DNA from: Bacteroidota bacterium | GTDB lineage: Bacteria > Bacteroidota > Bacteroidia > Chitinophagales > BACL12 | Direction: 5' to 3' | DNA length: 64,000 nt | Assembly (NCBI GenBank): GCA_016715425.1 | Contig: JADKAC010000005.1 | Span: 832,798 to 896,797, forward strand | In this document: positions 35,196-40,045 of the stretch, in pieces | How the letters are laid out: the number at the start of each line of letters is the position of its first letter | How positions within the stretch are numbered: the stretch's first letter is position 1 | The notes under the pieces: model-generated | Told to the model about the DNA's origin: nothing | Seen by the model: the letters and a program-made list of their open reading frames with translations, nothing else | Databases searched by the model: none | Translations under genes and position numbers: made by a program

Positions 35196-35960
35196 ATGCC
35201 TGACTACAAAATCAATAATATCTTCATTTCCTACGCTCACGAAGATGAGCTGTTTAAGGATAAGCTTGTAAAACATTTATCGGGGTTAACAAGAAACGGC
35301 CAAATAAATTTATGGACAGATACGGTTATAGTTCCCGGTCAGGAATGGGATAATGAAATTAAGAATGCATTGCAACAAGCAGATATTATTTTGTTTTTAG
35401 TGAGTGCGGATTTTATGGCTTCCAATTATATTCATACTATCGAAATTGAAAATGCAATTGCAAAACATAATTCTGGTGAAATAATTATTGTTCCGGTAAT
35501 TATCCGTTCTTGCGATTTCCGGAGTTTGCCTTTAAAGAAATTTCAGGCATTGCCAAAAGGAAATGTTCCGGTTACAAAATGGAGCGATGAGGATGAAGCG
35601 TTTTTAAATATTGTAGAAGGTATTAAAATGATTTTGGCTCCGGTAAAAGTAAATACAGCGCCGTCACCAGTTGTAAACCTAGATTCACAGATAATTGCAA
35701 GTATATCTCCTGAAATTTCTAAACAAATTCGCAATTTTATTGCAACTAATAAAACAGAATTGGCAATAAACATTATGATGAAAGTTATTCCTGAAAATAA
35801 TGCAGATGCAAGTAATACCTGTATTGTGTTACAGGCAAAATATAATGAATTGCGTAAAAAGAATAGATTGGGAATTATGTCGTATGATGAATATTCAAGA
35901 TCCGTTTCGGGGGTGAATATTTCATTGCTTGAATTATTGGATACTTTAACTAATGCATGA
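35196..35960 (+). CDS. TIR-domain protein with a C-terminal helical adaptor domain
   Basis: IFISYAHEDELFKDKLVKHL...WTD..VPGQEWDNEIKNALQQADIILFLVSADFMASNYIHTIEIENAI is a TIR_2-type pattern that includes the conserved Glu position. The ~80-aa C-terminal region is helical. Confidence 0.85.
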   Translation: MPDYKINNIFISYAHEDELFKDKLVKHLSGLTRNGQINLWTDTVIVPGQEWDNEIKNALQQADIILFLVSADFMASNYIHTIEIENAIAKHNSGEIIIVPVIIRSCDFRSLPLKKFQALPKGNVPVTKWSDEDEAFLNIVEGIKMILAPVKVNTAPSPVVNLDSQIIASISPEISKQIRNFIATNKTELAINIMMKVIPENNADASNTCIVLQAKYNELRKKNRLGIMSYDEYSRSVSGVNISLLELLDTLTNA

Positions 35961-36928
35961 TGCAATTTCGAACTGAATTATTTCCGGCATCGGAAGCAAT
36001 TGTTATTAATTATAATTCTCGGATTTTTACTATCGGTTCTTGTTTCACTGAACATATTAGCAATACTCTTAGAACTTTAAAATTTAATGTGCTGTCAAAT
36101 CCATTTGGCATTGTATATAATCCGGTTTCAATTTGCAATCAATTGGAAAGAATTGTAAAGAGAAAGTATTTTATTGCTGACGATTTGTTTTTATCTGAAG
36201 GAGTTTATCGCACATTTGAAGCGCATAGCATAATGGCTGATTATACTCAAGAAGAAACATTGCAAAAAATAAATACTGTAATTGATGAATCACATATTAG
36301 GTTACAAAACACTACCCATGTCATCATTACTTTCGGTGCTTCGATTATACATGAGCTTAGTGAAACAAAATCTATAGTAGCAAATAATCACAAACAAGCG
36401 GCAAGTACATTTCAAAAACGTTTTCTCACAATTATTGAAATAGTAGAGGCATATCTGATGATAATATTTTATCTAAAGAAAATGAATGCGGATATTGAAA
36501 TTGTGTTTACCATAAGTCCTGTACGGCATATCAAAGATGGGCTTACGGATAATACAATAAGCAAGTCCTTACTGTTTGCTGCCTTGCATGAAATCTTAAA
36601 TAAAAAAGATATTTTTTATTTTCCTTCTTATGAATTAGTGATAGATGATTTGCGTGATTATCGTTTTTTTGAAAAAGATTTGGTGCATCCCAATGCAATG
36701 GCTATTGATTATGTATGGGAGAAATTTAAATCGTGGGCAATTAGTAAAGATTGTTATTCAACGATGGAAAATATTTCCAAAATAAATTCTGCAATTCAAC
36801 ACAGACCCTTTTTCAATAAAACTGAACAGCATAAGGAATTTAGAAAGAAAATGGTAGAATTTACTTTGCAATTGCAGAAAAAAAATCCGATGTTGAATTT
36901 CGAAAAGGAAATTGAATTCTTTACTTGA
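35957..36928 (+). CDS. GSCFA-family protein (SGNH-hydrolase-like, function unknown)
   Basis: The N-terminal FTIGSCFTEHI matches the GSCFA signature. The remainder is consistent in length (323 aa). ATGA overlap with the TIR gene. Confidence 0.65.
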   Translation: MMQFRTELFPASEAIVINYNSRIFTIGSCFTEHISNTLRTLKFNVLSNPFGIVYNPVSICNQLERIVKRKYFIADDLFLSEGVYRTFEAHSIMADYTQEETLQKINTVIDESHIRLQNTTHVIITFGASIIHELSETKSIVANNHKQAASTFQKRFLTIIEIVEAYLMIIFYLKKMNADIEIVFTISPVRHIKDGLTDNTISKSLLFAALHEILNKKDIFYFPSYELVIDDLRDYRFFEKDLVHPNAMAIDYVWEKFKSWAISKDCYSTMENISKINSAIQHRPFFNKTEQHKEFRKKMVEFTLQLQKKNPMLNFEKEIEFFT

Positions 36929-36940
36929 TTTTTTTAAAAT

Positions 36941-37275
36941 GGTATCGGGTATCGAGTATCGGGTATAGAACTTTGACTATTGACTATTGACTTAGACATT
37001 GACAAAAAAAACACATCACTGAATTTGGCTATTAACTTTTAGCTATTGGCTGTTGGCGAAAAAAAACTTTGACTATTGATGAAAAACTTTGGCTATTGGC
37101 TATTGACCATTAACATTGACTATTGACAAAAAAAACTCATCACTCATTATTGATTATTCATTAATTATTTTTCATTTACAATTTACAATTTACCATTTAC
37201 AATTGCTTATTGCTTATTGCCTTTTGCTAATTGCTTATTATTTTTTCACCATTCACCATTCACCATTCACTATTT
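36941..37275. repeat. mosaic of heptanucleotide tandem-repeat blocks in a convergent intergenic region
   Basis: Blocks of about 4-5 units each: GGTATCG (36941-36968), TTGACTA (36973-37003 and again 37068-37130, mixed with TTGGCTA), TTGGCTA-like (37026-37060), ATTTACA (37174-37204), TTGCTTA (37203-37237), TCACCAT (37246-37273). There is also a higher-order repeat TTGACAAAAAAAAC(A/T)CATCACT at about 36998 and 37123. Confidence 0.9.
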
Positions 37276-37618: not shown

Positions 37619-40045
37619 TTATTTAAATATTGTTGTGAAAAAGGCATTATGTTCTGCCTCTTTTTCTGTTTTATAAAATTGAAGTGGATAATAAATATTA
37701 TTTGCCCAGTCAGTTATAAAATTATCATAATACTTACTTCCCGGATTACCGCTTTGGCCGCCGGGATAAATTGCCCATGCCTTTATTTGTTTTGGATCCA
37801 TTTCTACAATCATTCGCCACGATGGTCCATTGCGTTCGCTGGTGGCATTCACTATATTTCTATAGCCCCCATTTTTAATTGTAGTGCGACTAAAAGCAGG
37901 TATTTGTGCTAAGTGCATGATTGAAGTATTTTTATATTTATACCACTGCAAATTATCGGGATGTAATTGCAAAAGACTATCCTTCCAAATTGTGGTTTCT
38001 TCTATTGCCATTAATGCGATATCTGCAAAAGTTTCTTTCTTGTTTGTATTTTGAATATCGAAATAATTAACCGCCAATCCGGATTTTATAAATTGAATAG
38101 TTGCATAATTGCTTGGTAATAAAAGTGATTTTGTATTGTTAGGAATAACAAACTCATCCCACAACATGGTATTAAAAGTTGTCCAGAATTTTTGAAACAG
38201 GGAAGGAGTTATTAATTCTGCATTATTTTCATAATTCCATGTACCTAAAGAATCATAAATAACATTTGCACTATCCGAAAGTTGCATTGCATCAATTGCA
38301 CGTAAAAGTATCGGCAATGACTCAGCTGCGATTAAATTGTAATTATCACCTTGAAGCAGCATCATATCTTCAACAGTAATTTGTTGCATAGAATCTAATA
38401 AGAAATTGATGCGACGATTTCGAAAAAATTCAAAATCGCTGCTCATATAAAAATAAGGATAGAGTGTATCTGTAGGATGTTGATTTGCCGAACTCACATA
38501 CCCTCGTGTAGGATTAAGAATAAACGGATTTTGAGAAAAAGGGATATAAGTATTCCATTCATTTGCAGGCATACTTCCATCCAATACAAAGCGACCTTGT
38601 TCCGGCCACTTCACTGCATATTTTCCTGTTTGTGTAATACCGATATCTCCCGTGATAGATGCAAAAACAATGTTTTGACCGGGACATTCAAAATAGGAAA
38701 CGGCAGTTCTGTAATCGGAATAATTCTTCGATTTGTTCAGCAAATAAAACACTCTAAAATCATTAGAAATATCAATAGCGGCCCAACGCATTGCCAATGA
38801 ATTCCAATCCGAATACGCAGTATCAAAATCTTTATAAACCATTGGCCCCTGATGCGTGTAAAAAACTGTATCTATTATTTCTGGTCCGTCTTTTACTTTA
38901 ATATGTTCTATTTGTTTTGAAAATGGTTTTATTGAATTATCATACTTGTAATTATTGTTATCTGCATTTGTAATGCGATACCAGTCACGTACATCACGAC
39001 CAGAATTAGTACTGCCCCATGCGATATAATTATTAAATCCGATTATTATCGCAGGCGCACCGGCAAAACATACTCCATAATTATTATTATCCGGTGTGGT
39101 TAATTGAATCTCAAACCATATAGAAGGTAAGTTTAATTGCAGATGCGGATCATTACATAAAATAGCATTGCCGTTTTTGGTTTTAGCAGGTGCAATGGCC
39201 CAATTATTACTGCCTACACCTGATTGTTCTTCGTCGTGTTGTTCATGATTATTTATACCATAAATAGATTCAGTATAATATGCATTGGAAGTATCGGTTT
39301 GTAAAGCATTAAAATTATATGGAGTTCCTTTTGGAATTATGGGTTCCAAATCATTTGGCCAAAGCGGATATAACAAATTAAAATCTTCCCGACCAATTAA
39401 ATTAATGGCATTTGTGTATTCCACATCATCATCAAAACCTGCGAGAGTATTGCTCATGTACATCAGTAAATTACAAGTATGCAACGGTTCGAACTTCGTG
39501 GGTTTAAAATTCAACAGTTTATATTCCAAAGGATAATCTGCGTATTTCAGCGTTTCGATATATGCATTCACACCTTCGGAATATGCATTTATAATTCCAT
39601 TAATTTCCGGATCCGCTTGAATTGCTTTTAATTTATTTTCTGCACCCTTTGCCATTCCTAAACGACGTTGAAGACGATCATAATTAATTAAATCCGGACC
39701 TAATATTTCAGAGAGCTGACCTGATGCTGCACGGAAAGTAATTTCCATTTGCCATAAACGATGTTTAGCAACAATGTATCCTTGAGCCATATATAAGTCG
39801 TGCTCGTTTTCAGCAAATATGTGGGGCACCAAACGGGTGTCATAATACACATGCACAGGATCATGTAATCCGGGCAATTCTAATACTTGTGATTTGTAAT
39901 CATATTTATTTTCTGCATTCGCCATATAGCCATGAACAGGATCTAATAATTTTCCTACTGGAGGTAATTTTCCTTTTCCATTATTGAAAATGAAAATTAG
40001 TGTAATGGAGATACAAGCAAAAAATATAAAACGAAGAAATCGCAT
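37619..40045 (-). CDS. penicillin acylase-family Ntn hydrolase (possibly an acyl-homoserine-lactone or beta-lactam acylase)
   Basis: 808 aa with a signal peptide. The autoprocessing/nucleophile site GVGSNNWAIAP (Ser-Asn-Asn-Trp) is typical of the S45 family. Confidence 0.8.
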   Translation of the reverse strand: MRFLRFIFFACISITLIFIFNNGKGKLPPVGKLLDPVHGYMANAENKYDYKSQVLELPGLHDPVHVYYDTRLVPHIFAENEHDLYMAQGYIVAKHRLWQMEITFRAASGQLSEILGPDLINYDRLQRRLGMAKGAENKLKAIQADPEINGIINAYSEGVNAYIETLKYADYPLEYKLLNFKPTKFEPLHTCNLLMYMSNTLAGFDDDVEYTNAINLIGREDFNLLYPLWPNDLEPIIPKGTPYNFNALQTDTSNAYYTESIYGINNHEQHDEEQSGVGSNNWAIAPAKTKNGNAILCNDPHLQLNLPSIWFEIQLTTPDNNNYGVCFAGAPAIIIGFNNYIAWGSTNSGRDVRDWYRITNADNNNYKYDNSIKPFSKQIEHIKVKDGPEIIDTVFYTHQGPMVYKDFDTAYSDWNSLAMRWAAIDISNDFRVFYLLNKSKNYSDYRTAVSYFECPGQNIVFASITGDIGITQTGKYAVKWPEQGRFVLDGSMPANEWNTYIPFSQNPFILNPTRGYVSSANQHPTDTLYPYFYMSSDFEFFRNRRINFLLDSMQQITVEDMMLLQGDNYNLIAAESLPILLRAIDAMQLSDSANVIYDSLGTWNYENNAELITPSLFQKFWTTFNTMLWDEFVIPNNTKSLLLPSNYATIQFIKSGLAVNYFDIQNTNKKETFADIALMAIEETTIWKDSLLQLHPDNLQWYKYKNTSIMHLAQIPAFSRTTIKNGGYRNIVNATSERNGPSWRMIVEMDPKQIKAWAIYPGGQSGNPGSKYYDNFITDWANNIYYPLQFYKTEKEAEHNAFFTTIFK

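Follow-up and report, generated by a model that had tools for sequence, protein, structure and literature searches.

STRR heptamers were reportedly found in heterocystous cyanobacteria by Mazel et al. in 1990, with the units CCCCAGT, TTGGTCA and CAACAGT. To our knowledge, dispersed heptamer repeats of this and similar kinds have been known since then with neither an origin nor a function assigned to them. Rehm et al. (2015; PMC4692102) described the heptamers GGGAATC of Xanthomonas and GGGGA(C/T)T of Nostoc. MacGregor (2015; PMC4679880) reported TAACTGA and other heptamers in Beggiatoaceae, Cyanobacteria and five Bacteroidetes, and intergenic heptamer direct repeats in Gramella forsetii, Aequorivita sublithincola and Elizabethkingia anophelis. 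That study followed one unit, found the repeats missing from the same gaps of close relatives and patchy in their phylogenetic distribution, and suggested that they regulate translation from positions upstream of start codons. A further arrangement is the intervening sequence (IVS) with an S23p ORF in the 23S rRNA of Coxiella burnetii and Leptospira; in Coxiella, two or three tandem GACAGAT heptamers, variable among strains, lie just before the S23p ORF (PMC4990558). The repeat class treated here is itself already known, and heptamer assemblages of Bacteroidetes received a brief mention in 2015 (PMC4679880), which overturns the suggestion in the preliminary description of our locus that no equivalent was known to have been described in Bacteroidota.

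The window that we analyzed is a stretch of 64,000 nucleotides (C5:832798-896797) from the 3.82-Mb genome of a sludge bacterium (G000; 34% GC). In this window, a 335-bp chain of 7-bp tandem blocks (36941-37275) occupies the space between two convergent stop codons (Table 1). The self-match of the segment at lag 7 is 0.61, compared with 0.294 ± 0.023 and a maximum of 0.37 in 2000 shuffles, and the signal repeats as harmonics at lag 14 (0.51) and lag 21 (0.46). TRF resolves the segment into seven period-7 arrays of 3.7-5.7 copies each. The heptamer mosaic that had been described is thus real, with every named block recovered in its place by TRF except TTGGCTA, which we recognized by eye. The strict 7-bp periodicity claimed for it holds inside the blocks and is lost across them, where the phase shifts at A-run linkers. 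The higher-order duplication that had been reported also exists, as two copies of a TTGACA-A8-C(A/T)CATCACT junction. The second D-W-D series reads TTGACTA TTGATGA, A5, TTGGCTA x2, TTGACCA TTAACA TTGACTA TTGACA. The strand skew switches along the mosaic, with 36 G and 28 C in its left part and 6 G and 29 C in its right part. The left and right modules come from different families, the two halves have no complementarity, and folding compared with shuffles gave z values of -0.87 and +0.54, neither strand being better. Because of this, the window locus is not a hairpin like the gene-carrying cassettes discussed below. A scan of both strands from 36929 to 37269 revealed no intrinsic terminator, that is, no GC-rich hairpin followed by a U-run.

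Table 1. Features of the mosaic and its flanking genes (positions in the window).
Feature	Position	Strand	Basis and remarks
GSCFA-family gene	35957-36928	+	ORF list; Pfam PF08885, E 2e-81
GGTATCG x3.7 block	36941-36966	+	TRF; G-rich on +, reverse complement of the ATACCCG-type P family
TTGACTA-type block, D family, ~4 units (TRF x4.7 at 36973-37003)	36970-37003	+	TRF, census
Junction copy 1, TTGACA-A8-CACATCACT	36999-37021	+	By sequence; D module leads into S-type block
TTGGCTA-type block, W family, 5 degenerate units	37025-37059	+	Visible in sequence
Second D-W-D series	37069-37128	+	TRF (TTGACTA x5.7 at 37089-37127), strain alignment
Junction copy 2, TTGACA-A8-CTCATCACT	37123-37145	+	By sequence; strand skew flips here
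TCATTAT x4.7 block, S-like, AT-rich mosaic center	37144-37176	+	TRF
ATTTACA x4.4 block, K family	37174-37204	+	TRF
ATTGCTT x5.4 block, L family	37202-37239	+	TRF, strain alignment
TTCACCA x4.3 block, H family	37245-37274	+	TRF
Hydrophobic (membrane) ORF, 125 aa or 115 aa	37270-37647	-	ORF list; stop TAG 37270-37272

The mosaic closely approaches the stop codons on both sides. The TGA of the GSCFA gene (36926-36928) lies 12 nt before the first repeat block. At the other end, the H block reads TAG-TGAATGG... on the minus strand, where the stop codon of the opposing ORF starts the first unit; as noted earlier, the last block therefore overlaps this stop codon, which sits in a degenerate TTCACTA unit. 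The opposing 125-aa ORF has no match in Pfam. It overlaps the end of a penicillin-amidase gene by 29 nt (window 37619-37647). In other assemblies, its product is annotated as 115 aa with a later ATG as the start, in agreement with the ortholog in a species of the same genus (G001). In this congener, the orthologs of the GSCFA gene (62% identity) and of the 125-aa ORF (63%) have the same C-termini and are also convergent, with a gap of 63 nt that contains no repeats. The pattern TTGACWR x3 has 65 matches in our genome and none in the congener, and it is patchy in relatives, being found in three of 14 sister-genus species and in one other family.

The locus is present in four other assemblies of near-identical strains, which differ from the window by 4-12 substitutions per ~7 kb. 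All indels over these ~7 kb in the five strains fall inside the array: one TTGGCTA unit in the second D-W-D series, one ATTGCTT unit in the L block and an A8/A9 run. The suggestion of a slippage-prone hypervariable locus is borne out by the two whole-unit 7-bp indels among five strains. At a second locus, an [AG]TGGTGA array has 16, 12, 15, 12 and 11 units in the five strains. The run-length histogram of units falls monotonically with no preferred length, and no presence/absence polymorphism of a whole mosaic was found among close strains. We rejected a phase-variation contingency locus, because the array lies between two 3' ends and 7-bp changes spare both ORFs. Short-read (Logan) contigs of the species end in or beside the mosaic (loci L028-L032 and L035-L042). 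The arrays are therefore systematic break points of assembly, so that short-read MAGs probably contain too few of them. In practice, they break short-read assemblies at gene ends.

The mosaic is one member of a large family. TRF on the whole genome gives 682 period-7 rows against 184 period-6 rows; at a score of at least 38 and at least 3 copies, this amounts to 324 heptamer and 131 octamer arrays, with 0-21 arrays for periods 5, 6, 9, 10 and 11. With an independent lag detector, the genome yielded 83 lag-7 and 28 lag-8 arrays, and a copy simulated by a third-order Markov model yielded none. A rough ORF map places 306 of the 324 heptamer arrays between genes, and there are ~200 loci in all, in line with the expectation that the units would recur elsewhere in the genome. 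We grouped 376 blocks into nine families (35 blocks in the reversed-sequence control), with a vocabulary of TTGGCTA (W), TTGACTA/TTGACAA (D), GTTTCGG (F), CTCATCA (S), ATTTACA (K), ATTGCTT (L), TCACCAT/TCACTAT (H) and ATACCCG (P). The D and W families comprise 80 and 77 blocks, respectively, and the H family contains 41% C and 0% G genome-wide.

Several further repeats accompany this census. The octamer arrays (AATTCTAC, AAATGTGC, AATCRGCT and others; n=131) behave like the heptamers; examples lie at C5:276533-276640, C3:203579-203649 and C2:108964-109046. The longest array has ~60 CTGCCCT copies in three runs (C2:237741-238171), separated by GCCATCAGCCATCGCCATCGC linkers that match cassette arms at C8:535235. 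A 3-kb duplication of 99.7% identity, in opposite orientation (C1:407700-410800 and C7:415700-418800) and near two contig ends, contains a heptamer block. In a relative (G014, C1:453896-456916, L021), TTGTCAA or ATTCTCA runs alternate with a conserved CCCCGAAGCTTGATCATCCTCCCGACGATCA spacer in a ~70-nt higher-order repeat, a different set of modules that follows the same building principle.

The blocks are chained according to a polar grammar. In 85 of 93 multi-block loci, all blocks lie on one strand, and their order is nearly invariant: S precedes H in 13:0 cases, K precedes H in 7:0, D precedes H in 10:1 and K precedes L in 5:0. An all-against-all blastn of the loci returned 2490 like-oriented pairs and 34 oppositely oriented ones. 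Linkers that are not themselves repeated recur as well, with 12 genomic occurrences of GACTTTTTAAATTGAC and 25 of AAAAAAC[TA]CATCACT. Between two elements whose flanks are unrelated, matches have 81-91% identity, and pairwise matches between elements fade diffusely within the arrays. Independently of the unit-family definitions, we examined successive skewed arrays in the same gap. A G>C array is followed by a C>G array 65 times and the reverse occurs 4 times (tandem<< genes 18:0, convergent 24:0, tandem>> 17:2, divergent 6:2). The window mosaic follows this G-first, C-second rule, which applies to either strand when read 5' to 3'. As gaps between genes in tandem show this order too, it cannot result from transcription-coupled mutation bias, and we discarded that explanation. 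With regard to a link with the replication strand, array orientation shows a weak trend with local GC skew (119 to 86).

The loci are also unevenly placed with respect to genes. Convergent gaps hold 38% of the mosaic loci compared with 15% of all gaps, and divergent gaps hold 8% compared with 15%; where genes lie in tandem, neither orientation is favored (52 vs 48). In 39 of 50 loci, the H block touches or overlaps the stop codon of the opposite-strand gene, and H blocks that face a start codon do so from a median distance of ~100 nt.

The same arrays bracket a particular type of gene, an association that is absent from the preliminary description. The genome contains eight PF05635 genes (S23p / 23S rRNA intervening-sequence protein; Avd-like four-helix-bundle pentamer). 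We take Avd, a nucleic-acid-binding partner in a retroelement, to be the sole characterized PF05635 relative. PF05635 proteins are homologous to Avd, a basic pentamer that binds structured RNA (PMC10053308; bioRxiv 10.1101/2023.10.23.563531), and the closest solved structure to the proteins of our genome is X. campestris XCC0516 (PDB 2GSC, E 1.7e-20). Arrays lie within 250 nt on both sides of five of the eight PF05635 genes, compared with 25 of 3177 genes overall, and on at least one side of all eight, compared with 377 of 3177. Within each of these cassettes, the two arms repeat a single unit in inverted orientation (TGGCTGT/AGCCAAC, TTGACAG/TGTCAAC, TGAATGG/TTCACYW, the octamer AATGTGCA/CACATCTG and the hexamer GGCGAA/TCGCCA), and the G-rich arm comes first in seven of seven. 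The arm heptamers are W, D and H units, alongside one octamer family, which builds the arms of the cassette at C1:175957. Both arms of the cassette at C1:355412 consist of the D module with its linkers, and the same module recurs in solo mosaics. The solo mosaics accordingly have a cassette-like layout, and some of their modules and linkers are common to PF05635 arms. In a cassette between sucD and fumC, the upstream arm includes the sucD stop TGA in its first unit, and the downstream arm stops one base ahead of the fumC ATG. In the congener, sucD and fumC have the same order with ~290 nt between them, and neither a PF05635 gene nor arrays are present.

Three cassettes (arms TGGCTGT, the GGCGAA hexamer and CCCTCCG) occupy successive gaps at C8:532400-538600 (L161), in a row of sugar-nucleotide and polysaccharide genes that includes a UDP-glucose dehydrogenase, a GFO/IDH/MocA oxidoreductase and an epimerase. 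On the idea of one heptamer per PF05635 clade, the evidence points both ways: AATTAGT arms are common to two unrelated PF05635 proteins, and ACACGGG arms to two near-identical ones. Inverted arrays of the same unit also bracket ordinary host genes, namely one of 819 codons (ACCATTA/CAATGGT, C5:540434-543229) and one of 475 codons (GTAGAATT/TTCTACAA, C2:602722-604637), so that arm pairs are not restricted to PF05635 cargo. The window locus has no PF05635 ORF in it or beside it, and tblastn detected no decayed PF05635 genes beside solo arrays. The reverse transcriptase family PF00078 has no match in our genome or in the array-rich relatives G006, G014, G018 and G028, and on this ground we ruled out a reverse-transcriptase origin of the arrays.

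The association extends to related genomes. At the top PF05635 loci of ten relatives, adjacent heptamer arrays are present in 10/10, on both sides in ~8, and the unit differs from locus to locus. In small samples (100-200 kb) of 19 related Bacteroidota genomes, which as kin are non-independent, array density rises with the PF05635 count (rho 0.96 within the order, n=11; 0.77-0.81 across the phylum, n=19). Six genomes that lack PF05635 genes have 0, 0, 0, 1, 0 and 0 arrays, and the congener has neither PF05635 genes nor arrays. Exceptions to the correlation are G133, with 6 genes and 0 arrays, and G073, with 3 genes and 5 arrays. Two relatives with only divergent PF05635 matches (G012 and G022) contain octamer arrays and no heptamer arrays. 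The correlation could equally reflect a requirement of the cassettes for pre-existing arrays.

We consider it somewhat probable that the window mosaic is a cargo-less copy of the PF05635-cassette arm set that does not form a hairpin, changes length through slippage and can be accommodated at the 3' ends of genes. The window locus has the D, W and H modules, the linkers and the G-first chirality in common with the cassettes. The mosaic would represent an arm set that has no cargo and whose arms are not complementary, presumably copied into the gap between two convergent stops. Replication slippage may then have lengthened and shortened it until both stop codons were reached, and it would have been kept since 3' gaps tolerate such sequence. 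The locus probably has no specific role beyond that of an unstructured spacer without an intrinsic terminator. Traces of copying or mobility in the form of target-site duplications or defined ends were absent, and no PF05635 cassette of the genome matches the abundant families F, S, P, K and L or two octamer families.

Alternatively, the mosaic may be a plain long simple-sequence-repeat locus, produced by lineage-specific 7-nt slippage wherever selection permits, with PF05635 cassettes that sit in or recruit arrays and no copying between loci. Much of what we observed is compatible with this: length differences are whole units, copy numbers have a geometric-like distribution with no favored length, arrays are kept out of coding DNA and are scarce in divergent gaps, and there is no signature of mobility. 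Among the long SSRs of many bacteria, moreover, heptamers are the most frequent (Mrazek 2007, as quoted in PMC4679880). Slippage of this kind leaves unexplained, however, why identical non-repeated linkers occur at a dozen or more loci, why elements with unrelated flanks are 81-91% identical, and why block order and the 65:4 chirality are fixed in all contexts; nor does it fit with the near absence of arrays from the six PF05635-free genomes. We regard it as unlikely. A still more remote idea is the one raised in the preliminary description, a scar or attachment site bordering the adjacent TIR/patatin accessory operon. Although this defense-like operon is ~1 kb away, the GSCFA gene separates it from the array, the GSCFA/125-aa-ORF pair is conserved and convergent in the congener too, and ~200 like loci lie at ordinary gene ends beside housekeeping genes such as sucD and fumC, which makes an island-edge origin highly improbable.

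Another explanation gives the mosaic a function at the level of nucleic acid, either as a platform of multivalent sites for PF05635 pentamers or another protein, or as a Rho-loading (rut-like) insulator, whose G-free, C-rich arrays would keep transcription of one gene from entering its convergent neighbor where intrinsic terminators are lacking. The G-free, C-rich H blocks and the lack of structure on both strands of the window region point in this direction. A rut site is expected to be ~70 nt or more, unstructured and richer in C than in G, and the plus strand from 37129 to 37275 has 6 G and 29 C; a rho gene is present in the genome. Every transcript that enters the mosaic would have G-rich and then C-rich RNA. 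The Avd homolog binds a structured RNA element (bioRxiv 10.1101/2023.10.23.563531), and the three commonest heptamer families are each matched by PF05635 cassette arms. Terminator-like hairpins, none of which lies in the window gap, occur at 5-7% of element-bearing 3' ends compared with 12-36% of other 3' ends, although this deficit may stem from arrays simply filling the scanned 150 nt. Against such a role, the congener copes with only 63 nt between the same two genes, array length is free to vary between strains, and several unit families have no cognate cassette. We judge a platform or insulator to be improbable as the explanation of this locus. Nevertheless, neutral filler would be expected to show less order than the strict G-then-C chirality and the G-free H blocks do, and a functional role would account for the chirality better than neutrality.

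Beyond this locus, we tentatively put forward a broader proposal, which we hold to be possible but more doubtful than our reading of the window mosaic. PF05635 cassettes may have given rise to, or may drive, the heptamer and octamer arrays of the STRR type across bacteria in general, the dispersed arrays being arm-only derivatives or targets. Such a relationship would cover the Coxiella IVS, the GGGAATC repeats of Xanthomonas and the cyanobacterial STRRs, and the G-first chirality would reflect how cassettes are made or bound. If the PF05635 link is causal, the origin and function of heptamer repeats become a testable question. The genome analyzed here gives an unusually clean picture of them, with a closed vocabulary, a fixed order, chirality, whole-unit variation and the PF05635 link. 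In the literature that we searched, a closed vocabulary with fixed order, a context-independent 65:4 chirality and a quantitative tie to PF05635 were not found.

Comparison with known systems places the locus more precisely. Like an IVS, the cassettes have a PF05635 ORF in the loop between inverted arms; their arms are wholly heptameric, and they lie between protein-coding genes rather than in rRNA. The window locus, which lacks both an ORF and complementary arms, is not an IVS. As with REP/BIME elements and MITEs, hundreds of short non-coding mosaics sit at 3' ends and in convergent gaps and far exceed their gene-carrying relatives. By contrast, there is no palindromic unit, no terminal inverted repeat and no target-site duplication here, and the interior consists of tandem heptamers. 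The absence from corresponding gaps of close relatives and the patchiness reported for Bacteroidetes repeats in PMC4679880 recur here, whereas most of our arrays are located at 3' ends, and the vocabulary, order, chirality and PF05635 link are not described there.

The resemblance to the Xanthomonas and Nostoc heptamers (PMC4692102) is extensive. In both cases, there are ~200 dispersed loci per genome that are mostly intergenic, rare between divergent ORFs and variable in length among related genomes. The sense strand is G-rich within 50 bp of a stop codon or overlapping it, the antisense strand is G-rich directly before starts, and many inverted pairs are G-first. The differences lie in the units, which have no G-tracts here, and in the chaining of several families in fixed order instead of the use of a single unit. 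Without G-tracts, the units cannot form G-quadruplexes, and we excluded the quadruplex-forming GGGNATC class because G-runs and a four-unit preference are both absent. A four-unit ruler as in Xanthomonas was likewise rejected on the basis of the monotonic run-length histogram.

The likeness to cyanobacterial STRRs, which had been proposed from the outset, holds. In both, tandem heptamers are intergenic and dispersed, with several unit families per genome, in different phyla (Cyanobacteria and Bacteroidota). STRR3 read on the other strand (TTGACTG) would be a D-type unit, and STRR2 (TTGGTCA) would be near the W and D units. We know of no polar block grammar or PF05635 link described for STRRs. 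With its tandem units, dispersed copies, intergenic bias and strain variation, the window locus belongs to the dispersed heptamer SSR/STRR-like class.
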